Virus record (IMG/VR): IMGVR_UViG_3300045988_073134
Origin: a virus
DNA: 64,000 bases
Reading direction: 5' to 3' (one strand)
In this document: in pieces, positions 17,624 to 45,233 of the stretch
How the letters are laid out: each line of letters opens with the position of its first letter
How positions within the stretch are numbered: the stretch's first letter is position 1
Notes under the pieces: generated by a model
What the model was told of the DNA's origin: nothing
The model's input: only the letters and a program-made list of their open reading frames with translations
Databases searched by the model: none
Translations under genes and position numbers: made by a program

Positions 17624-17660
17624 ACATATATAGTATAGTAAATCTCATCTATTTACTAAC
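17624..17660 (-). promoter_or_regulatory. Phage 'GTTAGTAAA / TATACTATATATGT' promoter motif, copy 1
   Basis: The plus strand reads acatatatagtatagtaaatctcatctatttactaac. AAGGAG of ORF 17432-17608 starts 1 nt downstream. Confidence 0.65.
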
Positions 17661-32855: not shown

Positions 32856-33856
32856 AAAATAATCAACTCGCTTTCAATCAAATTTTTAGGATTCTGCTCA
32901 TATTTTATCTTGTCTAATAAGTTATTTACTCCGTCTAATATATCTACTAAGTCATATTTTGAAGTATTAGTTGCTATGTGGATACACTGTCTCATTATGT
33001 CAGTTGGTATCATTGTTAGTTCTTTATTTCTTGTTATGTTCAGCTTACATAGGTCTAGTACAAACTTATTTAAATCTTTTACAAATAGTTTTAAGTCCTT
33101 GCCGTCTCTGTATATACTGTCTATTATTTGTATTGGCTCATCTGCTTGTTTATTTATAATACCTTGTACTATCTTTAATAGATGTTCATAGTTAGTAATA
33201 CCTAGACAATCTAATACAGCTTGTAATGTAATATCAGTTGTGTAACCAAGTACTGTATCTAGTTTCATTATGGCATCTCTCATTCCACCGTCGGCCAACT
33301 TAGCTATATACTCCAATGCCTCTATGTCATAAGTTATTTTTCCCTCTTGTTGTAATATATATTTCAATCTTTGTACTATCTCAAACTGAGGAATACGTTT
33401 AAAGTCAAATCTTTGTAGTCTGCTCAATATAGTTGCAGGTATTTTATGAGGGTCAGTAGTACATAGTATGAATATAACTCCTTTTGGTGGTTCTTCTAAT
33501 ACCTTTAATAGTGCATTAAATGCACCAATGCTTAACATGTGCACCTCGTCTATTATATATACCTTGTATTTACTATCCAGGCTCTTCATTCTACAGTCGT
33601 CAATTATACTACGTATATTATCAACCCCGTTGTTACTGGCACCGTCTATTTCAATTGGTTTTCCTTTACCACCATTTACATCACTTGCAAATATTCTTGC
33701 ACTCGTAGTTTTCCCAGTACCACTTGAGCCACAAAATAGATAAGCCTGTTTTATCTCACCAGTTTGTAATTGATTACTTAATACCTTTTTCACATTATCT
33801 TGACACACTACATCCTCAAAATGTTGTGGTCTATATTTAACAGCTAAATTCATCAT
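32843..33856 (-). CDS. dnaX: Clamp-loader ATPase, DnaX (gamma/tau-like)
   Basis: KYRPQHFEDVV, GSSGTGKTT, IIDEVHMLS, FNALLKVLEEPP and ILSRLQRF motifs. The start was set at ATG 33856 (AGGGAGGATATATTAT upstream). Confidence 0.85.
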   Translation of the reverse strand: MMNLAVKYRPQHFEDVVCQDNVKKVLSNQLQTGEIKQAYLFCGSSGTGKTTSARIFASDVNGGKGKPIEIDGASNNGVDNIRSIIDDCRMKSLDSKYKVYIIDEVHMLSIGAFNALLKVLEEPPKGVIFILCTTDPHKIPATILSRLQRFDFKRIPQFEIVQRLKYILQQEGKITYDIEALEYIAKLADGGMRDAIMKLDTVLGYTTDITLQAVLDCLGITNYEHLLKIVQGIINKQADEPIQIIDSIYRDGKDLKLFVKDLNKFVLDLCKLNITRNKELTMIPTDIMRQCIHIATNTSKYDLVDILDGVNNLLDKIKYEQNPKNLIESELIILCLK

Positions 33857-34355
33857 ATAATATATCCTCCCTTTGTATATGTTTATAAGTTTCATAATAA
33901 TAACAACTTATTATAGTACTTTCCTTTATTTCTGGAAATAAATTACATACTTCAAATCTACTTAATCCAGCTAACCTAAGGCGTCTAATTAAAATAACCT
34001 GGTCATCTGTTAATTTACAATTACCACTTTTACCTCGTTGATACCCATGTTTATATGAATGCTGTGTATTATGGGCTATTGTACACCATTCCAAATTACT
34101 TACAGTATTATCCAATTTATTACCATTTATATGATTAACACAAGGATAATTATTGGCATTGGGTAAAAACGCTTCGGCTACTAATCTATGTACTCTTTTA
34201 TAATAACGTTTATAGTTAACACATAAACATATTTCCTCATAACCACTAGACCCTATAACAGTACTCATTATTTTATTATACTTATTTTTTATACGTCCTT
34301 TATTACTTACATAATAAATCCGTCCTTGTATATTAAAAGGTCTCCACTCCTCCAT
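33837..34355 (-). CDS. HNH homing endonuclease (NUMOD4/HNH_3-like), free-standing
   Basis: EEWRPF...YYVSNKGRI, VHRLVAEAFLPN and VNHINGNKLDNTVSNLEWCTIAHNTQH motifs. It is a paralogue of 37069-37662. Confidence 0.8.
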   Translation of the reverse strand: MEEWRPFNIQGRIYYVSNKGRIKNKYNKIMSTVIGSSGYEEICLCVNYKRYYKRVHRLVAEAFLPNANNYPCVNHINGNKLDNTVSNLEWCTIAHNTQHSYKHGYQRGKSGNCKLTDDQVILIRRLRLAGLSRFEVCNLFPEIKESTIISCYYYETYKHIQREDILYDEFSC

Positions 34356-34687
34356 TATAACTCCTCCTTTAATTTCTCAATATAATCTTTTAAATCTTGT
34401 AAAGGTATTACTGCATATTCTTCCCCTACTTTTCCAAAGTCAAAGACTAATGCAGTATAAGGTCTATGCATTGCTAATGATTGTTGTTGTAGTTTTGTCA
34501 GCCACTCCCTTTTTATTGTGAACTGTGTTGTAGGTTGCATTTTTGTCTTACATTCTACTAAATAGAAGTTATCAACTAGCACATCACCTTTTTTAGTGTG
34601 GCCAGCTCCACTATTTGGTGTCACTTCTCCTTCTAAGTAATTTGCTACATATTGCTCCTGTTCATCACTTTTACTTCTCGTACTCAT
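34355..34687 (-). CDS. PD-(D/E)XK nuclease, Holliday-junction-resolvase-like
   Basis: E..V..YL ... GDVLVDNFYLVECKT matches the D-x(n)-E-x-K core. ATG 34687 lies 9 nt after GGAGG. Confidence 0.5.
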   Translation of the reverse strand: MSTRSKSDEQEQYVANYLEGEVTPNSGAGHTKKGDVLVDNFYLVECKTKMQPTTQFTIKREWLTKLQQQSLAMHRPYTALVFDFGKVGEEYAVIPLQDLKDYIEKLKEEL

Positions 34688-34699
34688 TAAAAACACCTC

Positions 34700-34736
34700 C
34701 TATATATAGTATAGGAGGTATCTCTTATTCGCTAAC
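34700..34736 (-). promoter_or_regulatory. Phage promoter motif, copy 5 (weaker -35 GTTAGCGAA)
   Basis: ctatatatagtataggaggtatctcttattcgctaac. The -10 part lies inside palindrome 34696-34718, which includes the downstream RBS. Confidence 0.45.
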
Positions 34737-35351
34737 TTGGTCTTTAACTTTTTTAAAAAAATCTTTTACTACTCTTGATACATAAGCAGGTGATACACTG
34801 TACTGATATGCTATGTATGTACCTTTTATGCCACACAGATAATCTGCTATTATAGCACGTTGTTTGTCATTCTTCACGTTCTTTAATTCTTCTCTAATAA
34901 TTTCTTTTAACTCACGTACTAATGCACTAAGCTCTACATCTTCTTTACTTTCCAAATAATTCTCTAATGATGTGTATCTAATATGACCATGATGTTTGAG
35001 TTGTATATATCCATCTATGGATAATATCTTATATATATTTTGTTCACCATCTGTAGTATATCTATTATGTTTGTCTATTCTATTTCTGTACTGTCTTAAT
35101 TCTCTTTTTATTGAGGGATATGCAAAAGTTGTGAATAGTGTACCATATGAAGGGTCATAATGGTCTACACACTTCATTATACACTGCCATGCGACCTGGT
35201 ACAGCTCATCTCTATCATTGTATAATTTATATGGTTTTAATAGGGAATATACCATATTGTCTATGTACTGTGGTAATTCGTTTATCGCCTCTTTATCTCC
35301 GTTTTTATATCTCATAACAATTTCCTGGCACTTATTTCCATTATTACTCAT
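34725..35351 (-). CDS. Sigma-70 family sigma factor (phage-encoded, second copy)
   Basis: Region 2-like DELYQVAWQCIMKCVDHYDPSYGTLFTTFAYPSIKRELRQY and region 4 HTH YIAYQYSVSPAYVSRVVKDF. Confidence 0.7.
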   Translation of the reverse strand: MSNNGNKCQEIVMRYKNGDKEAINELPQYIDNMVYSLLKPYKLYNDRDELYQVAWQCIMKCVDHYDPSYGTLFTTFAYPSIKRELRQYRNRIDKHNRYTTDGEQNIYKILSIDGYIQLKHHGHIRYTSLENYLESKEDVELSALVRELKEIIREELKNVKNDKQRAIIADYLCGIKGTYIAYQYSVSPAYVSRVVKDFFKKVKDQVSE

Positions 35352-36510
35352 CTAACATCACCTCATTTAGTCTAGTTAATAACTCATGTACCACGTCTTC
35401 ATGTTCATGTAGATAATTAATAAATCTAGTCATACCTTGGAAGTTCAGTTCATTCCCTTCTTTATCTAATACTATATTACCTTGCTCATCTATTACTCTA
35501 TACCAAGAACCTGCTTGTTGTACTATTTTATAAAACATACAAACATTAATCATATCGTATAGTGTATCTACACCCTCTAAGTATTTTAATGTGTAATATC
35601 CTAATCTTCTATTTGGTTTGCATACTTTAGTTTTTATTATCTCCATGCCAACTCTGTTGCCGGCAGGATTTTCAGCTTTACTACTCAACTCTTTATTATT
35701 CTCATCTAATAATGTATCTTTTCTAAATCTTATTCTTAAACTACAAGCATGTTTCCATCCTTTTCCTCCAGGTGTGCTTATAGTACTGAACATACTACCT
35801 AAGTCTTCACGTATTTGATTAATTCCTATGAACGCACATTGATTTACTGTTAAATGAGGTAAAATTTTACTACAAAATACAGTTAGTGGTTGAGATACAC
35901 CACCATACGCTTTCTTTTCCATACTCTCATCAAATATTTGTTGAGGAACTAGACATGGTATACTGTCTAATACACATAAACCTACATTGCCAGTTGATAT
36001 TAATTCAATTATTATTTGTAGTACCTGTTCAGCAGTCTGTTCTTGTGGTCTTACTAATATCATCTTCTCTGTATCTACTCCAAGTAACTTAGCCCATTCA
36101 GTATCCAATGTTTGTTCTGTATCTATGTATAATACTAATTTTTCTCCTTTTTCTTGTACTTTATCTAATTCTGCACTCAACTTATTAAGTTCCTTTTGAG
36201 ATTGTTTTGTATTAGTTTGTTGTAATAGTTCTATCTGTTGTATCAATTCACCAACTTTTTTACTATACACCTCAGCAAATTTCTTTTGTGCATTACCACA
36301 AATATCAAGAGCAGATGTTGTTTTTCCTCCACCTTCACCTCCAAAGAACTCAGTTATTTTTCCAATTGGTATTCCTCCATATGTCATATAGTTTGCCATA
36401 GGTGAACTAAAAGGTATTTTATCTACCTCTATTATGTCAGTACCTCGTTGTATTATATCTGCACCAAATTTTTTATTTAATGCAGCCATTTTTAAATCTA
36501 TTTCTCTCAT
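35344..36510 (-). CDS. recA: RecA-family recombinase
   Basis: The N-terminus LNKKFGADII resembles RecA. Walker A FGGEGGGKTT, Walker B-like GLCVLDS, and a coiled-coil insertion. Confidence 0.75.
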   Translation of the reverse strand: MREIDLKMAALNKKFGADIIQRGTDIIEVDKIPFSSPMANYMTYGGIPIGKITEFFGGEGGGKTTSALDICGNAQKKFAEVYSKKVGELIQQIELLQQTNTKQSQKELNKLSAELDKVQEKGEKLVLYIDTEQTLDTEWAKLLGVDTEKMILVRPQEQTAEQVLQIIIELISTGNVGLCVLDSIPCLVPQQIFDESMEKKAYGGVSQPLTVFCSKILPHLTVNQCAFIGINQIREDLGSMFSTISTPGGKGWKHACSLRIRFRKDTLLDENNKELSSKAENPAGNRVGMEIIKTKVCKPNRRLGYYTLKYLEGVDTLYDMINVCMFYKIVQQAGSWYRVIDEQGNIVLDKEGNELNFQGMTRFINYLHEHEDVVHELLTRLNEVMLDE

Positions 36511-36511
36511 A

Positions 36512-36988
36512 TTAATACATCTCCTTATTAGTTTCTTGGTATTCTTTGTATAGTTCTCTTACTTTGTCTCTAGATTTAGGGTCATGCTCCACGGGAACCA
36601 CTTCTCTATTCTTACAATCTCCTTTTATAAAATCATATATAAAATCATCTCTAAAACCTATTTCTTCAGCATCTTTTACATCACCAGCATATATCACTTT
36701 ATCCAAGTTAGCCCATATTATTGCAGCCATACACATTGGACAAGGATACCCAGTTGCATATAGAGTATATCCTGTCAAATCAAAAGTATTTAGTATCTTA
36801 CACGCAGTTCTTATAGCACATATCTCAGCATGAGCAGTTGGGTCATTATTACCTAATACATGATTACTATCTACACAAATTATTTCTCCAGTTTTACTAT
36901 TTACTATAGCAGCTCCAAAGGGACCTCCTATTCCTTTACTCATAGTCATTTTAGCTTGTTTAATTCCTAAATCCATTGGTTTACTCAT
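36512..36988 (-). CDS. CDA-fold deaminase, closest by eye to the guanine deaminase (GuaD) subfamily
   Basis: GIGGPFGAAIV, DPTAHAEICAIRTACK, YPCPMCMAAIIWA and the C-terminal GFRDDFIYDFI. These match my recollection of B. subtilis GuaD (GIGGPFGAVIV, DPTAHAEVTAIRKACK, EPCPMCLGAIYWA, GFDDSFIYKEI). Confidence 0.6.
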   Translation of the reverse strand: MSKPMDLGIKQAKMTMSKGIGGPFGAAIVNSKTGEIICVDSNHVLGNNDPTAHAEICAIRTACKILNTFDLTGYTLYATGYPCPMCMAAIIWANLDKVIYAGDVKDAEEIGFRDDFIYDFIKGDCKNREVVPVEHDPKSRDKVRELYKEYQETNKEMY

Positions 36989-37018: not shown

Positions 37019-37055
37019 ACATATATAGTATAGAAAAAGTGGGTGATTTACTAAC
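37019..37055 (-). promoter_or_regulatory. Phage promoter motif, copy 6
   Basis: acatatatagtatagaaaaagtgggtgatttactaac, 31 nt upstream of ATG 36988. The -35 lies in the loop of terminator hairpin 37038-37063. Confidence 0.7.
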
Positions 37056-37063
37056 CACCCACT
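37033..37063 (-). terminator. Terminator hairpin whose loop carries the -35 element of promoter copy 6
   Basis: The minus strand reads AGTGGGTG-GTTAGTAAAT-CACCCACT followed by TTTTT, which runs into the -10 region. Confidence 0.6.
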
Positions 37064-37068
37064 TTGTT

Positions 37069-37662
37069 TTATTTACCAGTAGTATATTTAAAAATATATC
37101 CACCTGTAGAGTTCCATACACCATTACATACATCCACAATATACTGTCGTTTAATACCTGTTTGTTTGGAGGTTTCACCTGCATTAATAAACGTTTTAAC
37201 GTATTGTCCTTGTTTGGTATACATCTCTACGGGTTTTAAATCGCGTTCCCAACGTTTTTTACTCATATTTGATAAATGTTCTTTACTACTATAATCTCTG
37301 TTCCCACATTCTAAGGCGTGTATATTATTATGTTGTACCGTACACCATTCTAAATTTTCTACTCGATTATCATCTCTTATACTATTAATATGATTAACTA
37401 CGGGCAGATTATTTGGGTTAGGTATAAAGGTCATTGCAACTAATCTATGCACTTGGTAGTAATAACATTTACCTTCCTTATATAAATTTACTTTTAAATA
37501 ACCATCCTTACTATATGGCAAGTGCATCCAATGTTTTCGTTTAACACCATATATTTTCCCATCTCTTGTTATTTTATATAGACCTTCAAAACCAGGTATA
37601 TCATATAATTGATTATCGATTCGTAGTTCCATAACCGCCTCTATCTGGGTTGCCAAGCTCAT
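37069..37662 (-). CDS. HNH homing endonuclease (NUMOD4/HNH_3-like), free-standing
   Basis: IPGFEGLYKITRDGKIYG, VHRLVAMTFIPNPNNLPVVNHINSIRDDNRVENLEWCTVQHN. It overlaps the dut 3-prime end; ATG 37632 is an alternative start. Confidence 0.8.
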   Translation of the reverse strand: MSLATQIEAVMELRIDNQLYDIPGFEGLYKITRDGKIYGVKRKHWMHLPYSKDGYLKVNLYKEGKCYYYQVHRLVAMTFIPNPNNLPVVNHINSIRDDNRVENLEWCTVQHNNIHALECGNRDYSSKEHLSNMSKKRWERDLKPVEMYTKQGQYVKTFINAGETSKQTGIKRQYIVDVCNGVWNSTGGYIFKYTTGK

Positions 37663-38071: not shown

Positions 38072-38580
38072 TAATAATCCCTCCCATTGGCCATCATATT
38101 ATTTCTTGTTACATTAAATTCATTAAGTCTCAAGTTCATTAATTTCTTCAAGCTACTGTGTAGCATATCTGCTATATCTAATTTCTTCTCACATTGTTTA
38201 TACACTCTTATATATATGTCTTCAATAAATTGTTCTTCTTCCACCATTAGTTGAGCATCACTTGTTTTAGCTGCCACTGTACTCTCATCACTGTGCATAT
38301 AAGCAGTGTTAAAACGTGTTTTCTTTTGAGTCTTAGCTGCATCAACTCTAACTCCTAGTACCTGCATTTTATCTATTAGTTCATACATCAACACTGGTAA
38401 TAGTGCTATATATTTCTCTAAGTCATCATTACTTAGTGTAGAGGTATTTTGTAGTAGTTCTTTAACTTCATATATGCAATCATCCAATGTACTTGTATAT
38501 TTTTCACTAATAGTTAATGCAGTATTAACTACATCACCACATTGTTTATTGAACTCTTTTATAATATCTAATTTACTCAT
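38071..38580 (-). CDS. Hypothetical helical protein
   Basis: ATG 38580 lies 9 nt after GAAGGAG. No recognisable motif. Confidence 0.5.
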   Translation of the reverse strand: MSKLDIIKEFNKQCGDVVNTALTISEKYTSTLDDCIYEVKELLQNTSTLSNDDLEKYIALLPVLMYELIDKMQVLGVRVDAAKTQKKTRFNTAYMHSDESTVAAKTSDAQLMVEEEQFIEDIYIRVYKQCEKKLDIADMLHSSLKKLMNLRLNEFNVTRNNMMANGRDY

Positions 38581-39058
38581 TATCAGCACACTCCTTCAAT
38601 TGAGCCATTAAGAATATTCTACTGTTAAAAGTTTCCTTGTCCAGTTTAAAATTTATCCTTTGGTATTCCACCGGTAGTCTACAAACACTAACTATTACTG
38701 CACAATCATGTATAGTTAAACTTTGCTTATTGTTTGCTATTGTTCTTTTTATAGTACTCCAGGGTATCATATATACTTCTTTATAATCTCTGAACTCAAC
38801 AACTACCATTGGATTACAGCCTTTTATATGGCTGTAAAAATCCAATTGTTCCTTTTGATTGTCGGTTATATTGCTAAAATCAAATCTACTACCTTTTACA
38901 CTTTTTAACTCAAATAAGTACTGATAAGGGTATCTGTAATAGATAAAATCACAAGGATTCTTTACTCCTGCATATCCATTAGTAGTATCATATAATCTCA
39001 CTAATTCTTTTCCGACTCCCTTCTTAAAGTTATTCTCGAATTTCTTTCCATAGTTCAT
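38573..39058 (-). CDS. recU: RecU-like Holliday junction resolvase
   Basis: GKKFENNF..., DFIYYRYPYQYLFELKS (D...E.K) and ITDNQKEQL motifs. ATG 39058 lies 6 nt after AAGGAGG. Confidence 0.6.
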   Translation of the reverse strand: MNYGKKFENNFKKGVGKELVRLYDTTNGYAGVKNPCDFIYYRYPYQYLFELKSVKGSRFDFSNITDNQKEQLDFYSHIKGCNPMVVVEFRDYKEVYMIPWSTIKRTIANNKQSLTIHDCAVIVSVCRLPVEYQRINFKLDKETFNSRIFLMAQLKECADNE

Positions 39059-39824
39059 TGGCATCCTCCTTAGCACAGATAGTTTTATATTTACAGTACG
39101 TGCATTTCGGCTCTTTTGGTGGTACTACATTCAATCTCACACAGTCATCTACGTACTGTATAGTATCTTCTATGTTCTCAATCATTTCTTTTGGTACTTC
39201 AAATAAATAACCTTTTTTACTACAATTATCTCTATTCTCATAGATGAATATTACTTTTGGTACGCCTATACACATAGAATAACAAGCTGCTTGTAGTTTA
39301 TGTGCTTGATGTGGTCCCTCGTGTGAGTTATATTTATGTGTACTCTCAGTTTTAATCTCTATTATATAGTACTCTCCTTTATAGTTCACTAATCCATCAC
39401 ACATAAATCTCATATTATATTTCTTACTGAATAACTTAGTTTCATTTCCTTCTTGAGATACCACCTGAGGGTCAGTAATTCCTTGTCTGTGTAAATACTC
39501 AGCTACATTAATCCATTTACAATTATTAGTGTATTTTGCCATTTGTTGTATATAATCTTGTATTGTCTCATGTCTATCAGTTCCACTCTCACAGATACCG
39601 ATTAAATTTAATCCACTACTTTGTTCATCTGGTTGAGCACCTATCATCTGATAATATAGACCTCTCTTACAACCTGCTATCCCACTAGGTTTATAAGACC
39701 TAGTTGGGATATAATCACTTTCATTCTCCTTCTCTATTGTATATATTAAGTCATTCACAAACTGTTGGGCAATCTCATTACTCTTTTCAGCTCTGACCAT
39801 TTTGGCTATTTTATTCAACTTCAT
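39030..39824 (-). CDS. Cas4/RecB-like PD-(D/E)XK exonuclease with a 4-Cys (Fe-S type) signature
   Basis: An N-terminal Cys (GIAGCKRGLYY) plus the C-terminal C-x2-C-x5-C (CTYCKYKTIC). The core is DGLVNYKGEYYIIEIKT. ATG 39824 follows GGAGGTTTCAT. Confidence 0.65.
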   Translation of the reverse strand: MKLNKIAKMVRAEKSNEIAQQFVNDLIYTIEKENESDYIPTRSYKPSGIAGCKRGLYYQMIGAQPDEQSSGLNLIGICESGTDRHETIQDYIQQMAKYTNNCKWINVAEYLHRQGITDPQVVSQEGNETKLFSKKYNMRFMCDGLVNYKGEYYIIEIKTESTHKYNSHEGPHQAHKLQAACYSMCIGVPKVIFIYENRDNCSKKGYLFEVPKEMIENIEDTIQYVDDCVRLNVVPPKEPKCTYCKYKTICAKEDANELWKEIRE

Positions 39825-39834
39825 ATGAAACCTC

Positions 39835-40893
39835 CTATTCTTCATCGGCAGTTGCCAACAACATTATACTATCTTTAGTTTGTAGTTTAAGTGTTTCCTC
39901 TGCCCCAAATTCTATAGTTACATTAGGTTCATCTACTGCACTAAATAAGTCCTTCATATAAGCGCTATTTACACTGATAATAAATGGCTCTGATAAATCT
40001 ATCGGCTTAGTATATTCAATCACCTCTAGGGACTTACTAGAAGTTGATATGACCATATTAGTTTCACTAAATACTAAATCTATAATACCTTTATCGTATA
40101 TACCTATAAATAAATCTAATCTATCTAATGCTTGTAAAACTTGCTTAACGTCTACTTCACAAGTATGAGGATAATTACTAGTCAATAATGGAAATACATC
40201 GGGATACTCATCTGCTCCCTCTTGTAAGGCTCCAGTAATAGTTATATTTTGTCCTACCGCTCTCAATGTTGAGCAATCTTTATCTACCATAAATTTTATG
40301 TTCTCAACATCTATTGATTGTAATAAGTTTGCTAATGTTGGAGGTATTAATAATTCTATTTCTTCTAAATCTTTACCGTCTAACTCAGTACTATATACTT
40401 TTATTGCATCAGCAGTAACTATCTCACTATCTCTTACTAAGTAACTAAATAATACACCATCTGTTGGTACATTACTCTTAGCTTTAGCGCCACTAGTTAT
40501 TGCATTACTTAAAGTTGTATAAGTTATAGTAAATTCCTTATCAACATCTATGTCTAAAGTTGGGTAAACTTCATCATTAACTATTTCAACTTTGTAATTA
40601 CCATTACCTTTTACTTCTAAGTAGTTATCTGTCAATTTAAGTGTCACTGTATCTTTAGTAGTTTTATTAATTAATTTACTAAATTGGTCAGCTTTTACTA
40701 TAACTGACATGTTCTCATCACATTCTGTTGGGTGATTAATTGTTATGAAGTTTATGCCGTCTGTTGCTCTCAATGATAATCCTTCTACACTAAAATCTAA
40801 CTCATAGTAATTAGTTATTTCTAATATTTTACTTGGTTTACAACTACTTACCGCTTTCAACATATCTTTTAATATACTTGTATTTACTTTCAT
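39835..40893 (-). CDS. dnaN: DNA polymerase sliding clamp, bacterial beta (DnaN)-like
   Basis: 352 aa. The N-terminus MKVNTSILKDMLKAVSSCKPSKILEITNYYELDFSVEGLSLRATDG shows the DnaN-like three-domain length and pattern. The phage also encodes a clamp loader. Confidence 0.7.
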   Translation of the reverse strand: MKVNTSILKDMLKAVSSCKPSKILEITNYYELDFSVEGLSLRATDGINFITINHPTECDENMSVIVKADQFSKLINKTTKDTVTLKLTDNYLEVKGNGNYKVEIVNDEVYPTLDIDVDKEFTITYTTLSNAITSGAKAKSNVPTDGVLFSYLVRDSEIVTADAIKVYSTELDGKDLEEIELLIPPTLANLLQSIDVENIKFMVDKDCSTLRAVGQNITITGALQEGADEYPDVFPLLTSNYPHTCEVDVKQVLQALDRLDLFIGIYDKGIIDLVFSETNMVISTSSKSLEVIEYTKPIDLSEPFIISVNSAYMKDLFSAVDEPNVTIEFGAEETLKLQTKDSIMLLATADEE

Positions 40894-40904
40894 AATTTTC
40901 CCTC

Positions 40905-41816
40905 CTAAAATAATCTTTTTTGGTATCTGTTATTACCTTTATATTTATAGTTATCTGCCCAATCTTTAAAGTAATTTATATTGTATAATTGTCTACTCTC
41001 TTGGTTTTCCATACATTGCTCTATTGATGTTCCATATGAAACGCATTGCTCATCTATTTGTCTCTGTACTAACTGTGGTAATTTATTGTAATGACTGACT
41101 TTGTGTTGTACTTTTGGTGATACACATATTCTACCATATTTGGTACATAACTCTCCATTTATTGCAGCCATTAACCACGTTGTACTGTCTGCACTCTCAA
41201 AGGGATAATTTTCTAATATGTCTAAGTTAGTCATCCCAAACGCATGAACTTTTACTTTTGGATTCTTACTTTGTTGTATAATCTTAAAACATTGTTTATA
41301 CCAATCTTCTTTTACTGAGCTGGCCAATCCAACAGTTCCACCAAGTCCTATATATGGAATATGTTTCCCATGAAACGTTGCCTCTAACATATTTTGTAGA
41401 TGTCTAAAGTCTTCTCCAATATGAAATACTGGTAATAATTTGTCTTTGTCTCTTACTTGCTCTCTCATATATAAATAATTGTGCCATGACTTCTCAGGCG
41501 ATTCACGTTGCTCTAATAATGTAGGTTTTCTTTTTAACTCACCTGGAATGTCATCTACACTTGCAAACAAAGTAAATTTGTCTGTATTATCATTTATAAA
41601 CTTTATATAATCTTCTACGTCTATATGTTTATTTTTACTCCAAGCACTGTATGCTCCCGAGTCTATAAATAACTTATTATTGGACATTACTTCTAAAAAC
41701 TTCATTATAACTTTTCTGTCATTTATTTGTGAAAATAGTACATCACATTCTCTTTTTATTATTATGTCATTCTGAGTATTTACTTTACTTCCCGCTAAAT
41801 ATAAGTTAAAACTCAT
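40905..41816 (-). CDS. dpdA: DpdA-like DNA-guanine transglycosylase, paralogue 1
   Basis: 303 aa. The TGT-superfamily-like motifs FIDSGAYSAW and ESADSTTW are present. It is adjacent to folE-queE-queD-queC. The C-terminus is KYKGNNRYQKRLF. Confidence 0.7.
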   Translation of the reverse strand: MSFNLYLAGSKVNTQNDIIIKRECDVLFSQINDRKVIMKFLEVMSNNKLFIDSGAYSAWSKNKHIDVEDYIKFINDNTDKFTLFASVDDIPGELKRKPTLLEQRESPEKSWHNYLYMREQVRDKDKLLPVFHIGEDFRHLQNMLEATFHGKHIPYIGLGGTVGLASSVKEDWYKQCFKIIQQSKNPKVKVHAFGMTNLDILENYPFESADSTTWLMAAINGELCTKYGRICVSPKVQHKVSHYNKLPQLVQRQIDEQCVSYGTSIEQCMENQESRQLYNINYFKDWADNYKYKGNNRYQKRLF

Positions 41817-41828
41817 TCAGCTCACCTC

Positions 41829-42752
41829 CTAAAATAATCTCTTTTGAAACCTATTGTTACCTTTGTATTTATACTTATCTGCCCAGTTTTGTATATAATG
41901 AATATTAACAACAGTTCTCAAGTTAGTATTTTCTACACATTCTTCTAATGTCAAATTACATTCAGCTATTTGTGCTTCCACTTGTTTCTGTACATCTTTT
42001 GGTAATTTTAATATGTGGTTAGGTCTGTGTTGAGCAGAATTAGATAATCCTACAACACCATATTTTGTAAGAATATTTCCATTAATTGCCAACATCATCC
42101 AGGTAGTACTATCAGCACTTGTAAATGGATAATTCTCTAATATATTCAAACTAGTCATTCCAAAAGCATGTGTTTTTATATTTGGGTTATTACTCTCTTT
42201 TATTACTTTAAAACATTGTTTATACCAATTACTCTTTACTGAACTTGGTCTAACTCCAACTGTTCCTCCTAACGCTATATATGGTATATGTTTTCCGTCT
42301 AATATTGTATTACACATATTACTCAGATGTTTAAAATCTTCTCCCATATGAAAAACTGGTAATAATTTGTCGGGTTCTTTAACTCGCTCTCTCATATATA
42401 AATAATTTTCCCACGATAATAATGGAGATTGTTGTTTCTCTTTTAGTGTTGGTGTTCTCGTTAATTCTCCTGGTATATTATCTACACTAGCAAACAATGT
42501 TAACTCATTGGTATTCTCATTTAAATAATTTATATACTCATCTGTATCAATACTTTTACCTCTTGACCAGGCACTATATGCTCCACTATCTACAAATACT
42601 TTTGTACCTGGTTTTTCTTTAGCTTGTTGTAACCATAATTTTCCTCTACTCCTATCACGTAGTTGAGAATATAATCTACAACTTCCTCTTGCCATCATGG
42701 CTTCATCAGCTTCAATATCTCTCACTCCTGCGAAGTATAAATCAAAACTCAT
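41829..42752 (-). CDS. dpdA: DpdA-like DNA-guanine transglycosylase, paralogue 2
   Basis: 307 aa. FVDSGAYSAW and TSADSTTW motifs. Roughly half to two-thirds of residues are identical to paralogue 1 by eye. The two genes are separated by 12 nt. Confidence 0.7.
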   Translation of the reverse strand: MSFDLYFAGVRDIEADEAMMARGSCRLYSQLRDRSRGKLWLQQAKEKPGTKVFVDSGAYSAWSRGKSIDTDEYINYLNENTNELTLFASVDNIPGELTRTPTLKEKQQSPLLSWENYLYMRERVKEPDKLLPVFHMGEDFKHLSNMCNTILDGKHIPYIALGGTVGVRPSSVKSNWYKQCFKVIKESNNPNIKTHAFGMTSLNILENYPFTSADSTTWMMLAINGNILTKYGVVGLSNSAQHRPNHILKLPKDVQKQVEAQIAECNLTLEECVENTNLRTVVNIHYIQNWADKYKYKGNNRFQKRLF

Positions 42753-42773: not shown

Positions 42774-42810
42774 ACATATATAGTATATAAAAAGTGGCCA
42801 GTTTACTAAC
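42774..42810 (-). promoter_or_regulatory. Phage promoter motif, copy 7
   Basis: acatatatagtatataaaaagtggccagtttactaac, 22 nt upstream of dpdA paralogue 2. The -35 lies in a hairpin loop. Confidence 0.7.
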
Positions 42811-42817
42811 TGACCAC
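42787..42817 (-). terminator. Terminator hairpin whose loop carries the -35 element of promoter copy 7
   Basis: GTGGTCAG-TTAGTAAA-CTGGCCAC (one G.U pair on the minus RNA) followed by TTTT. Confidence 0.55.
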
Positions 42818-42825
42818 TTAATTTT

Positions 42826-43395
42826 TTATCTAAATAATTCATATGCTTCTTGTCTTAATTCAATATTAGTTTTAAATCTACCTCTTATAGTTGCAGTTCT
42901 TGTTTTAGCTCCACGAGATTTAATTCCTCTTGCAGTCATACAACTATGTTCACCTTCTACTACTACAATTATATCTTCTGTATCTAATATCATCTGTAGT
43001 ATATCAGCAATATCTTCTCCAATACGTTCTTGTAATTGTAGTCTCTTAGCTACCATGTCTGCCACTCTAGCAATTTTACTAAGTCCTATAACCTTTCCGT
43101 TTGCTATGTATCCAACACTGACAGTCATATTATACATTAATGCCAAGTGGTGTTCACAATAACTAAAAATTGGTATTTTAGATACAGTTACAAGGTCATC
43201 TGCTCCCTCATCATAAAAACATTTATCGAACATCTCAGCTATTTCTTCATTTGTATAGTTCATACCTTCAAATACTTCTTGATACATTTTAGCGACTCTT
43301 TTAGGAGTCTCTTTTAGTCCTGCTCTGTCTGGGTCATCTCCTAACGCCACTAATATATCTCTTACTGCACTTTCAATTTTCTTAGTATCTATCAT
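42826..43395 (-). CDS. folE: GTP cyclohydrolase I
   Basis: Motifs [21 protein letters not shown] and [13 protein letters not shown] 43395 follows AGAGGTG; the track start is a GTG at 43404. Confidence 0.85.
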
Positions 43396-43396
43396 A

Positions 43397-44053
43397 TTAT
43401 ACACCTCTCATATTTGGATTCCATATTATTTTATGCAACTGAACTTGTACTTTTACATTGTTTAATCTATTATCCAGTATATACTCAACTAATTCTTTTG
43501 GTTCTATTTTACCAAATACTGGTGATACATAAGGCTGAGCTTTACATTCGCTCTCCTCTAGTATATATTCCATTTTCTCTAATTCATTGTAATTACTAAC
43601 TACAAATTTAATTACATCTTTAGGTTGAAGTAATTTTAAATTCCACAACTTCATTTTATCTTCCATGCCACTACTTGCACATTTATAATCCATTGTGAAT
43701 ATTACTTTACTATTATACTTGTATTCCCAAAACTTATCTAAATCAACTGCTCCATTAGTTTCTATATTTACTTCAACATCATTAGCTACTAAAGAGTTGA
43801 TTAAATCTTTTACATTCTCATGTATTAATGGTTCTCCTCCAGTTAATGTTACACGAGGAACTCCGTATGTTAATACCTCATCTAATATATCCATTAATGG
43901 CATTTCAGTATATTCACTATTTTCACAACTATAACGAGTATCACAGTAACTACATTTTAAATTACAGCCATACAGTCTTATAAAGACTGTAGGCAACCCA
44001 GTTCTAACTCCTTCTCCATCTATACTAAGAAATATTTCATTTACTTTATACAT
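43397..44053 (-). CDS. queE: 7-carboxy-7-deazaguanine synthase (radical SAM)
   Basis: [36 protein letters not shown] 44053 lies 1 nt after the queD stop. Confidence 0.85.
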
Positions 44054-44054
44054 T

Positions 44055-44429
44055 TTATCTTCCACAATTACATCCCCCTTTAACTTCATATATTGCAGTG
44101 TTATGAGCACTTTCCTCAACGCTTACTCTAGTACATTTTACATATATGCCATCAAACATACCAGTTAATTGGTCAGCTATCCATTTAGCAATATTCTCAG
44201 CAGTTGGATTAACTCCAACAACATCATTTATATACGCATGGTCTAATTGGTTTACAACTCTTTTTATATGAGTAAAATCCATTACCATTCCATACTCAGT
44301 TAATTCTTCACTCTCTATTTGAACTTCTATATTCCAGTTATGACCATGTAGGTTACTACATTTACTTTCATAAGGTAAATCTAATTTATGAGCTCCTGCA
44401 ACTTCCATTTTCTTTATTATTTTATACAT
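44055..44429 (-). CDS. queD: 6-carboxy-5,6,7,8-tetrahydropterin synthase
   Basis: 124 aa. CSNLHGHNW motif and DHAYIND. Confidence 0.8.
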   Translation of the reverse strand: MYKIIKKMEVAGAHKLDLPYESKCSNLHGHNWNIEVQIESEELTEYGMVMDFTHIKRVVNQLDHAYINDVVGVNPTAENIAKWIADQLTGMFDGIYVKCTRVSVEESAHNTAIYEVKGGCNCGR

Positions 44430-44430
44430 A

Positions 44431-45165
44431 TTATTTTTCCTCCCAATCTATTTTTATTTTATATGGTACAGGGTCAACTGCTCCATTTGCCTTAAAGGCA
44501 TTTATTCTATCTATACAAGTACCACAAGTACCACAACAAGGTCTTTCACCTTCATAACAGCTATGAGTTAATTCGTATGGCACTTTTAAATCTAATCCCA
44601 AACGTACAATATCTTTTTTAGTCATATTTACAAAAGGAGCATGAACTCTAACTTTGTCATAAGTACCAATTGATATAGCTTTATCCATAGTCTCAGTAAA
44701 TTCAGGACTACAGTCAGCATAGGCTTCACCGGCTGCATCATCTACATGAGCTCCTAAATATATAGTAGCAATTGTGTCTGGTTTGTCTTCAACTAGACTC
44801 ATCGCTATGGCAGCTACACTACTTAATAATAATCCATTTCTAAATGGTACATAAGTTCTTACCATTCCCTCTCCATCTTTGGCTATTTGGTCTGCATAAC
44901 TCTCATGTCTAATTTCTTCTGTACTATTAGATAATAGAGAACAGTTACTATATGCAAATATTTTACTTAAATCTATTTCTATATGTTTTACATCATAATA
45001 CTCAGCTATATCTTTTGCACATTTCAATTCAATACTGTGCTTTTGTCCATAATACGCACTAACTGTAACAACATTCTCTTTTCCATATAAATCTACTGCT
45101 AATCCCACTGCTGTTGTACTATCTACACCACCACTATTTAATACTACTGCAATTTCTTTACTCAT
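44431..45165 (-). CDS. queC: 7-cyano-7-deazaguanine (preQ0) synthase
   Basis: PP-loop VVLNSGGVDSTT and the C-terminal Zn cluster SCYEGERPCCGTCGTCIDR. Confidence 0.85.
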   Translation of the reverse strand: MSKEIAVVLNSGGVDSTTAVGLAVDLYGKENVVTVSAYYGQKHSIELKCAKDIAEYYDVKHIEIDLSKIFAYSNCSLLSNSTEEIRHESYADQIAKDGEGMVRTYVPFRNGLLLSSVAAIAMSLVEDKPDTIATIYLGAHVDDAAGEAYADCSPEFTETMDKAISIGTYDKVRVHAPFVNMTKKDIVRLGLDLKVPYELTHSCYEGERPCCGTCGTCIDRINAFKANGAVDPVPYKIKIDWEEK

Positions 45166-45196: not shown

Positions 45197-45233
45197 ACAT
45201 ATATAGTATATAAAAAACTCGGCTTTTACTAAC
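45197..45233 (-). promoter_or_regulatory. Phage promoter motif, copy 8
   Basis: acatatatagtatataaaaaactcggcttttactaac, 32 nt upstream of queC. The -35 lies in a hairpin loop. Confidence 0.7.

Follow-up and report, generated by a model that had tools for sequence, protein, structure and literature searches.

Recurrent association of a predicted guanine deaminase with 7-deazaguanine DNA modification genes in phages

Introduction

Modification of phage DNA with 7-deazaguanines is a well-studied anti-restriction strategy. The known phage clusters combine the DNA guanine transglycosylase DpdA with FolE, QueD, QueE and QueC and also feature QueF, Gat-QueC, DpdL/M/N and YhhQ (Hutinet 2019, PMC6884629; Cui 2023, PMC10516641). 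This published inventory of DpdA, enzymes for preQ0, preQ1, ADG and G+, DpdL/M/N and transporters includes none for the guanine that is excised. Here we describe a GuaD-like protein of 158 amino acids (aa), a predicted CDA-fold guanine deaminase, encoded on the minus strand at 36512..36988 of the virus record IMGVR_UViG_3300045988_073134, of which a stretch of 64,000 nucleotides, hereafter the window, was analysed. As in the known clusters, two DpdA genes and a full preQ0 pathway are present in the window, and relatives of its phage have QueT, YhhQ and QueF variants; what differs is that a guanine deaminase recurs as a cluster member. Neither of the two phage surveys (PMC6884629, including its supplements, and PMC10516641) mentions "deamin" or "xanthine", and a 2026 study of QueC neighbourhoods (PMC13329287) mentions no deaminase. 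A full-text literature search found no paper that connects DpdA, preQ0 or queuosine with a guanine deaminase in phages, in keeping with the original prediction for this gene, whose author was not aware of any description of the linkage.

Two described enzymes are closest to the window protein. The Bacillus subtilis guanine deaminase bGD (GuaD/YknA, PDB 1WKQ and 1TIY, a domain-swapped dimer) is 39% identical to it in a structural alignment, is co-terminal with it and within two residues of its length, and shares H53, E55, C83, C86 and D114 under identical numbering as well as the motifs GGPFG, DPTAHAE, PCPMC and GFxDxFIY. The two differ in that the window protein has ATGY for TSCE and R113 for D113, plus I91, N94 and Y150. 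Furthermore, bGD is a nitrogen-catabolic housekeeping enzyme, whereas the window protein is encoded by a phage and associated with DNA modification. The second enzyme, Arabidopsis guanosine deaminase AtGSDA (PDB 7DBF and related entries), is the top fold match (TM 0.84) and has the same zinc-binding and catalytic motifs and a C-terminal lid with a terminal Tyr. Unlike the proposed activity of the window protein, GSDA uses a nucleoside and does not convert guanine; it also scores below bGD and has Cys-Glu where the window protein has Gly-Tyr.

Enzymes that remove a competitor are known from other hypermodifying phages, including the dCTPase/dUTPase gp56 of T4 and the dATPase DatZ of 2-aminoadenine (Z-genome) phages. 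The logic is shared, in that a canonical competitor is destroyed and the non-canonical base wins. These enzymes, however, belong to unrelated families and act on deoxynucleoside triphosphate (dNTP) pools before replication, whereas the target proposed here is the free base from a post-replicative base-exchange enzyme. Both the enzyme family and the modification system have been described before; the new elements are that a guanine deaminase recurs as part of such a system, and the idea that the excised base needs managing. We consider it probable that a CDA-fold guanine deaminase, captured from low-GC bacterial hosts, has been repeatedly recruited as an optional accessory of DpdA systems that removes guanine.

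Family assignment of the deaminase

The original prediction, made from the DNA alone, described a 158-aa CDA-fold protein with four bGD-like segments and with neither the ComEB nor the TadA pattern, and on both counts it was borne out. Residues 19-29 (GIGGPFGAAIV), 49-64 (DPTAHAEICAIRTACK), 81-93 (YPCPMCMAAIIWA) and 111-118 (GFRDDFIY) all align residue for residue with bGD (PDB 1TIY/1WKQ), which is the best PDB match in a single-sequence phmmer search (E = 3e-30, 108 bits). AtGSDA follows with 88 bits (E = 5e-24), then TadA structures with 63 bits (E = 2e-16), and dCMP deaminases reach about 20 bits (E of about 1e-3; 8e-4 for 1VQ2 and 7e-3 for 2W4L). With a family profile of 12 members, the ranking against the PDB is the same: bGD scores 143 bits (E = 3e-41), Arabidopsis guanosine deaminase 125 and the best TadA 84, with cytosine and dCMP deaminases far below these three.

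The AlphaFold2 monomer model (mean pLDDT 88.3, pTM 0.86) points in the same direction. Its top 18 Foldseek matches are exclusively guanine or guanosine deaminases, with AtGSDA and the Nitrosomonas guanine deaminase NE0047 at TM 0.84 each and bGD next, all before any TadA. The model is a monomer and the bGD crystal structure 1WKQ a domain-swapped dimer, which accounts for the high root-mean-square deviation between them. By profile, alignment and predicted structure, the protein is thus assigned to the CDA-fold guanine/guanosine deaminases of the bGD/GSDA lineage (COG0590), ahead of TadA and far ahead of dCMP/cytidine deaminases, so that the homology check proposed in the original prediction came out for GuaD rather than for a dCMP, cytidine or tRNA deaminase.

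Routine annotation gives a different picture. A Pfam scan returned only the generic dCMP_cyt_deam_1 domain, and no NCBIfam model attains its own cut-off: the TadA model NF008113 scores 56.6 bits against a cut-off of 150 and covers only residues 22-104, and the ComEB model TIGR02571 scores 27.3 bits against 219. The best PHROGs label is "dCMP deaminase" (phrog_174, 1e-11, a partial match), and GenBank homologues are annotated as tadA. Labels of this kind from routine pipelines hide both the identity of the gene and its association with DpdA. About 8000 homologues are present in the protein database at E ≤ 1e-10, and the homologues at JGI are named "guanine deaminase", by homology only.

The predicted start codon is an ATG with a ribosome-binding site (AAGGAG) 8 nt on its 5' side. 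A GTG three codons further upstream was considered as an alternative start and is unlikely because it overlaps the ribosome-binding site.

Association with 7-deazaguanine genes

Scanning IMG/VR with the family alignment gave 182 viral contigs with a relative of the deaminase, and the best 80 were taken with 10-kb flanks. Fifteen of these 80 loci belong to the window's own phage group, and the survey counts use the other 65. Open reading frames (ORFs) were scanned with an iterated DpdA hidden Markov model (HMM) and with profiles for FolE, QueC, QueD, QueE, QueF, QueT and YhhQ built from sequences in hand.

At least one 7-deazaguanine gene lies within 10 kb of the deaminase gene in 51 of the 65 viral loci, with QueC present in 44, DpdA in 35, YhhQ in 29 and QueF in 12. 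The nearest such gene is on the same strand in all 51 linked loci, at a median gap of 32 bp and, in 30 of the 51, at a gap of 100 bp or less; the deaminase gene directly adjoins QueC in 14 loci. Linkage is found in 21 of the 30 clusters into which the viral proteins fall at 65% identity, and it takes at least ten gene orders. These include DpdA-QueC-GuaD-QueD-QueE-FolE, DpdA-GuaD-QueC-QueD-QueE-FolE, DpdA-QueC-GuaD-YhhQ, DpdA-GuaD-YhhQ, DpdA-QueC-YhhQ-GuaD-QueD-QueE-FolE, YhhQ-GuaD, QueF-QueC-QueD-GuaD-QueE-FolE-YhhQ and YhhQ-SDR-QueF-QueC-QueD-QueE-FolE-RNaseH-x-GuaD, in addition to two displaced arrangements in the window's phage group. Since the deaminase lies inside the cluster in most other phages, the window is a loosely linked variant of a widespread and tightly linked arrangement.

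Bacterial and archaeal assemblies, one genome per species, served as a control. They contain at least 597 relatives, and in the best 80 loci (1.2 Mb) none of DpdA, QueC, QueE, QueF, QueT or YhhQ was found near the guaD-like gene; two QueD/PTPS-family matches were the only hits. The difference between 51 of 65 viral and 2 of 80 bacterial loci is highly significant (Fisher p = 1e-23, kinship ignored), as is that for DpdA by itself, found in 35 of 65 against 0 of 80 (p = 6e-16, kinship ignored).

Because most linked loci fall in a phage group with a family-A polymerase, a clamp and RecA, a second IMG/VR scan was anchored on PolA (32-99% identity), and it yielded 46 loci whose downstream sequence extends for 9 kb or more. 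Four of these carry both DpdA and GuaD, 20 DpdA without GuaD, none GuaD without DpdA, and 22 neither (p = 0.11 for this sample alone). When all PolA-bearing loci are taken together, DpdA is present in 32 of 32 GuaD-positive and in 20 of 42 GuaD-negative loci (p = 2e-7, kinship ignored), and GuaD is found in 0 of the 22 DpdA-negative PolA phages. A fifth GuaD genome of the PolA sample is a 148-kb contig represented by both L058 and L233 (loci are designated by L numbers). No DpdA was found within 10 kb of GuaD in L058 when all other large ORFs were scanned with PHROGs; a DpdA (3.5e-75) lies about 28 kb from the Que-GuaD cluster. The GuaD-positive genomes are spread over at least ten DpdA clusters (50% identity), with GuaD-negative genomes in between, which indicates repeated gain or loss.

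GuaD predicts a 7-deazaguanine system, and a 7-deazaguanine system does not predict GuaD. The original prediction had proposed a co-occurrence survey of GuaD-like genes in DpdA-encoding phages; the association holds from GuaD to the 7-deazaguanine genes, but its converse is weak.

Active site and sub-type

The zinc ligands are assigned by homology as H53, C83 and C86 and the catalytic residue as E55. The purine site would comprise N42, F24, F112, D114 and the C-terminal Y158, whose roles are likewise taken from homology with NE0047 and bGD; D114 aligns with D114 of bGD. Conservation was scored over 63 non-identical phage-linked and 81 bacterial sequences. H53-A-E55 and P82-C83-P-M-C86 are unchanged throughout, F24 is invariant, and G21-G-P-F-G, N42, D49-P-T-A-H53-A-E55, W92, F112 and D114 vary little or not at all. 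All 63 phage-linked sequences end in Tyr, as do 79 of the 81 bacterial ones.

The C-terminus is of particular interest for substrate choice. In the profile search the deaminase was co-terminal with bGD and ended within one residue of the GSDA end; with the C-terminal 65 residues alone, the alignment to the PDB ended at bGD residue 129. The terminal residue of bGD is reportedly Tyr156 (Liaw et al. 2004). In AtGSDA, the hydroxyl group of the terminal Tyr185 hydrogen-bonds purine N7 and closes the lid, and the free carboxylate is also required (PMC9739398), whereas 7-deazaguanosine binds loosely and leaves the lid open (PMC10663702). CDA guanine deaminases in general require closure of the C-terminal lid and accept hardly any alteration of the guanine scaffold (review PMC9081823). 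Given a conserved terminal Tyr that reads N7 in GSDA, the enzyme should accept guanine and reject 7-deazaguanines, and by this analogy the invariant Tyr argues for guanine over preQ0 as the substrate.

The phage-linked proteins form a sub-type with the signature ATGY before PCPMC together with I91, N94, R113 and Y150, in place of the TSCE-PCPMC, D113 and W150 of bGD and GSDA. The window protein has T-G-Y in place of the S-C-E tripeptide and R113 in place of D113, which lowers certainty on base versus nucleoside and leaves the fold family unaffected. About 15 bacterial chromosomal homologues from Bacillota, Mycoplasmatota, Sphaerochaeta and Lachnospiraceae have the same sub-type signature; the bacterial locus L093 matches that of the window exactly, and L011/L012 nearly so. 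No substitution is exclusive to the phage proteins in the comparison of 63 with 81 sequences, and phage GuaDs share 66-69% identity with chromosomal counterparts from bacteria (L009 against L011, L034 against L093). Identity at this level indicates the capture of an ordinary guaD rather than a diverged new enzyme. The pattern of residues thus agrees with phages having repeatedly acquired ordinary guaD genes from their hosts and would be unlike that of a neofunctionalised enzyme.

Proposed role and alternatives

Catalysis by DpdA proceeds via a covalent enzyme-DNA intermediate, and its activity is measured as exchange of [14C]guanine into DNA (PMC10164549). Since it incorporates free [14C]guanine, free guanine is a genuine competitor of preQ0 in the second half-reaction. 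In the mechanism that we propose, DpdA would excise a genomic guanine and resolve the resulting covalent intermediate with a free base, for which guanine would compete with preQ0 or preQ1, giving a futile exchange of G for G. The deaminase would turn guanine, including that released by DpdA, into xanthine and so keep the ratio of guanine to 7-deazaguanine low, and the 7-deaza base would then win the covalent intermediate. A lid whose terminal Tyr reads purine N7 would spare the 7-deaza precursors. The effect is better worded as removal of a competing substrate of the second half-reaction of DpdA than as a shifted equilibrium. That the substrate is the guanine base rather than a nucleoside, and that a guanine sink benefits DNA modification, are both what we infer from the linkage and the homology.

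The quantities involved may be considerable. The window contains 20,440 G residues, and replacement of about 16% is reported for phage iggy (PMC10484667). At this level of replacement, 100 genome copies would free about 3e5 guanines, a sub-millimolar concentration in a 1-fL cell. Sub-millimolar guanine is far above typical Km values of transglycosylases. The model suits the minimal module DpdA-GuaD-YhhQ especially well, where the precursor comes by import alone and is presumably in short supply.

Several observations weigh against this role. In 14 of the 65 viral loci, the 10-kb flanks are free of 7-deazaguanine genes, and GuaD is found in only 4 of the 24 DpdA-positive loci of the PolA sample, about one in six. 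The DpdA family is encoded by 193 GenBank phage records, including Dp-1, Flasso and 9g/CAjan/Seurat-like phages, and no cultured DpdA phage in GenBank, these included, carries the deaminase; the 32 GenBank records that resemble it are faecal metagenome contigs or TadA-like matches. As most DpdA phages are without GuaD, the gene is an optional accessory that is dispensable for DpdA function. The co-occurrence statistics are made without phylogenetic correction. In the window itself the linkage is looser, with the deaminase 3.9 kb from DpdA, in another transcription unit, and adjoining recA. We found in the literature no assayed member of the ATGY/R113 sub-type, which differs from the characterised bGD and GSDA. 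The insertion of 7-deazaguanines by tRNA-TGT is considered practically irreversible, so that "pulling the equilibrium" may mislead and all that would matter is which base wins the covalent intermediate. Finally, the likely hosts have close homologues and ordinary guanine salvage and may already remove guanine themselves, so that the phage copy may add only dosage or timing.

The protein could instead be a GSDA-type nucleoside deaminase that acts on guanosine or deoxyguanosine rather than on the free base, for example in processing breakdown products of host DNA, which we consider unlikely. AtGSDA comes first in Foldseek, the profile alignment to GSDA extends almost to the C-terminus, and the ribose-contacting Cys107-Glu108, which acts through its backbone in GSDA, is changed to Gly-Tyr, so that the pocket differs from that of bGD. 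However, bGD outscores GSDA with the single sequence (108 against 88 bits) and with the profile (143 against 125 bits), the JGI name of the homologues is that of a guanine deaminase, if by homology only, and the free base is the product of DpdA, in line with the genomic linkage.

Somewhat less likely still is a generic auxiliary metabolic gene for purine salvage or nitrogen, independent of DpdA, that would convert the guanine of broken-down host nucleic acids to xanthine and on to XMP and GMP, or release ammonia. Such a function would suit a deaminase that is 58-69% identical to chromosomal guaD genes in ordinary housekeeping neighbourhoods and that sits, in the window, among dUTPase, recA, ThyX and ribonucleotide reductase (RNR) and not in the DpdA operon, as well as the 14 viral loci without a nearby 7-deazaguanine gene. 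The survey argues otherwise, since 51 of 65 viral loci are within 10 kb of such genes, 30 of them within 100 bp and inside the operon, 32 of 32 GuaD-positive loci are DpdA-positive against no GuaD in 22 DpdA-negative relatives, and 0 of 80 bacterial homologues show 7-deazaguanine linkage.

The substrate might also be a 7-deazaguanine, namely preQ0, CDG, preQ1 or the base in DNA, as part of a new 7-deazaxanthine-type modification or as a means of detoxifying excess precursor; the original prediction had likewise allowed for action on a 7-deazapurine. We regard this as improbable, and give the same low probability to a 7-deazaxanthine-type base, so far undescribed as a DNA modification, being carried or transiently made by these phages. 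Many clusters do place GuaD between QueC and QueD or beside the YhhQ/QueT transporters, and the sub-type (G-Y before PCPMC, R113) is without a characterised member. The invariant terminal Tyr speaks against it, however, as its GSDA counterpart must bond N7 for the lid to close and 7-deazaguanosine is only loosely bound there with the lid open, and CDA guanine deaminases are intolerant of small changes to the guanine scaffold (PMC9081823). In addition, the phage proteins are near housekeeping guaD and have no phage-only active-site substitutions within the sub-type, and loss of precursor would oppose the pathway.

It is very improbable that the deaminase serves as an ammonia donor for QueC, coupling preQ0 synthesis, which takes one NH3, to insertion, which frees one guanine. 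The two stoichiometries would match, at one NH3 per preQ0 made and one guanine per preQ0 inserted, and QueC is the immediate neighbour of GuaD in 14 loci. GuaD clusters without QueC within 10 kb exist all the same, such as QueT-DpdA...GuaD in L001, L002 and L004, DpdA-GuaD-YhhQ in L009, L038 and L048 and YhhQ-GuaD in L049, L055, L061 and L071, and cellular ammonium is usually not limiting.

Least credible of all is a mis-assigned gene, either a dCMP/cytidine deaminase that supplies ThyX or a tRNA adenosine deaminase akin to TadA. Pointing this way are the PHROGs label, TadA as the best NCBIfam match, the tadA annotation of GenBank homologues and the presence of ThyX and dUTPase in the window. 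The dCMP and TadA matches, however, do not extend beyond the shared zinc-binding core and stay well below the curated model cut-offs, guanine/guanosine deaminases score 25-60 bits higher, and both the GF(R/D)D motif and the lid with its terminal Tyr are conserved.

Removal of freed guanine therefore remains the role that we favour for the deaminase, and computation bore out each part of the original prediction that it could address. The embedding of the deaminase in modification clusters points to free guanine as a limit on post-replicative base exchange and suggests that some phages destroy this competitor, which, if true, would be a base-level counterpart of the enzymes that clear dNTP pools in other hypermodifying phages. 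The minimal module hints that the deaminase helps most when precursor is only salvaged; among the surveyed loci, there is no obvious relationship between the source of precursor (synthesis or transporter) and the presence of GuaD. A co-expressed guanine deaminase might also improve DpdA-based DNA modification in heterologous hosts.

Gene organization of the window

The window comes from a siphovirus-type tailed phage with portal, large terminase, major head protein, tape measure and tail fibre genes. All of its genes, and thus all features given below, are on the minus strand, and its GC content is 29-36%; a megablast search with 15 kb of the window returned no GenBank phage match, and the phage is known from metagenomes alone. 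The DpdA-type context named in the original prediction is present 3.9 kb upstream of the deaminase, as two DpdA paralogues and FolE-QueE-QueD-QueC. The first paralogue (40905..41816; phrog_887, 6.6e-58) has D52 in DSGAF and D210 in SADST and is 57% identical to the second (41829..42752; phrog_887, 4.9e-55). Both tandem copies keep these two aspartates, which are invariant in 12 diverse DpdAs and which, via homology with the enzyme of PMC10164549, would be general acid and nucleophile. The closest cultured DpdA to the first paralogue is that of Streptococcus phage Dp-1 (42% identity), where QueT adjoins DpdA. The two paralogues might reflect two target motifs or a heterodimer. Close relatives have one DpdA (L021, L024, L026) or two, and L007 has one intact DpdA and a second copy broken into two ORFs.

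All four synthesis genes for precursor supply are present: FolE, GTP cyclohydrolase I (42826..43404; PF01227, 1.3e-64), QueE, a radical-SAM 7-carboxy-7-deazaguanine synthase (43397..44119; PF04055, PF13353 and its position in the cluster), QueD, a 6-carboxytetrahydropterin synthase of the PTPS family (44055..44429; PF01242, 2.9e-31), and QueC, the preQ0 synthase (44431..45165; PF06508, 3.8e-52). In the direction of transcription, QueC-QueD-QueE-FolE are followed by the two DpdA genes, a sliding clamp, a Cas4-like exonuclease, RecU, an unknown gene, dUTPase and an HNH gene, and then by the deaminase, recA, a sigma-70-like protein, a resolvase and the clamp loader. ThyX and RNR are encoded in the window along with dUTPase.

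Much of this order is divided by a 29-nt promoter-like motif, GTTAGTAAA-N11-TTTT[CA]TATACT, of which the window has 15 copies, on the coding strand only, against 0 expected by chance. The copies start at 17632, 20086, 26747, 30644, 37027, 42782, 45205, 48398, 51426, 53602, 55662, 55795, 56011, 56420 and 56503. The copy at 42782..42810 heads DpdA2-DpdA1-clamp-Cas4-like exonuclease-RecU-dUTPase-HNH, and that at 45205..45233 heads QueC-QueD-QueE-FolE. The copy at 37027..37055 (GTTAGTAAA-N11-TTTTCTATACT), 38 nt 5' of the deaminase ATG, heads the unit that runs from GuaD through recA and the sigma-like gene to the resolvase and beyond. The RecA-like recombinase (35344..36510; PF00154, 1e-37) starts 1 nt past the deaminase stop codon, and the operon with recA that the original prediction had placed behind its own motif promoter, with the deaminase at its head, is thus recovered. 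The deaminase and DpdA are in separate transcription units with the same class of promoter-like motif. A plain sigma-70 promoter scan was uninformative, with 60 sites against 67 expected, and the phage's own sigma-70-region-2 protein (34725-35351) might read the 15-copy motif.

Overlapping the motif before the deaminase is a GC-rich hairpin, AAGTGGGTG / CACCCACTT, followed by a T-run (37034..37065), with the GTTAGTAAA box in its loop. This element looks like the terminator of the upstream dUTPase/HNH unit. A similar GC-rich hairpin with a T-run and the GTTAGTAAA box as its loop is present at 42792-42819.

Between the clamp and dUTPase are the Cas4-like PD-(D/E)XK exonuclease (39030-39845) and the RecU resolvase (38573-39076), which with a phrog_2002 resolvase (34355-34696) and recA make up a rich recombination module. 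Two HNH/NUMOD homing endonucleases are found at 37069-37662, between dUTPase and the deaminase, and at 33837-34355. The former is a mobile insertion, as it is also present in L007 and absent from L001, L002, L004 and L008.

Related loci

Close relatives in the window's phage group (64-75% identity) keep the order dUTPase-GuaD-RecA and vary in their supply module. L001, L002 and L004 have QueT and one DpdA and no synthesis genes, and L007 and L008 have a QueD-HNH fusion, QueE, FolE, QueC and DpdA. In the former three, QueT (an ECF S-component) stands beside DpdA in place of the FolE-QueE-QueD-QueC cassette (L001 4359-6588, L002 5086-6602, L004 4972-6578), and the deaminase remains in place through this swap of synthesis for salvage between sister phages. 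In the latter two, a 303-aa HNH-QueD (PTPS) fusion heads the Que cassette (L007 922-1833, L008 1771-2682).

An unrelated siphovirus, L009/L010, with an SPP1-type portal, Mu-F and ParB, has a deaminase homologue of 59% identity in the order DpdA, 46-aa ORF, GuaD, 103-aa ORF, YhhQ/Vut_1 transporter and terminase. Its 303-aa DpdA was recognised by PHROGs (9e-20) and by the iterated HMM, and was below threshold in a tblastn search with the window DpdA. The bacterial chromosome L011/L012 encodes a homologue of about 59% identity, and its neighbours are MBOAT, DHHW, UppS, a P-type ATPase and HolA.

QueC is the sole synthesis gene, together with DpdA, GuaD and YhhQ, in L030, L034-L037 and L065 (for example L034 8205-11200), which suggests either that a compound upstream of preQ0, for instance CDG, is imported or that this QueC serves another role.

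Phages of 80-160 kb with YhhQ-(Que)-GuaD clusters encode a phrog_1221 protein of about 320 aa, 1.5-2 kb downstream of GuaD (L058 12961-13929, L044 12079-13068, L049 11676-12638, L061 10924-12018, L071 11332-12330), at loci where the scan detected no DpdA. It was considered as a divergent DpdA and rejected (hhalign probability 0.1%), and a profile search found no PDB relative for the phrog_1221 profile or for the DpdA profile. An adh_short SDR also recurs in the 7-deazaguanine clusters (L001 4943-5596, L058 5289-5960), in the arrangements QueT-SDR-DpdA and YhhQ-SDR-QueF, and similar ORFs of 215-226 aa follow YhhQ in L044, L049 and L071.

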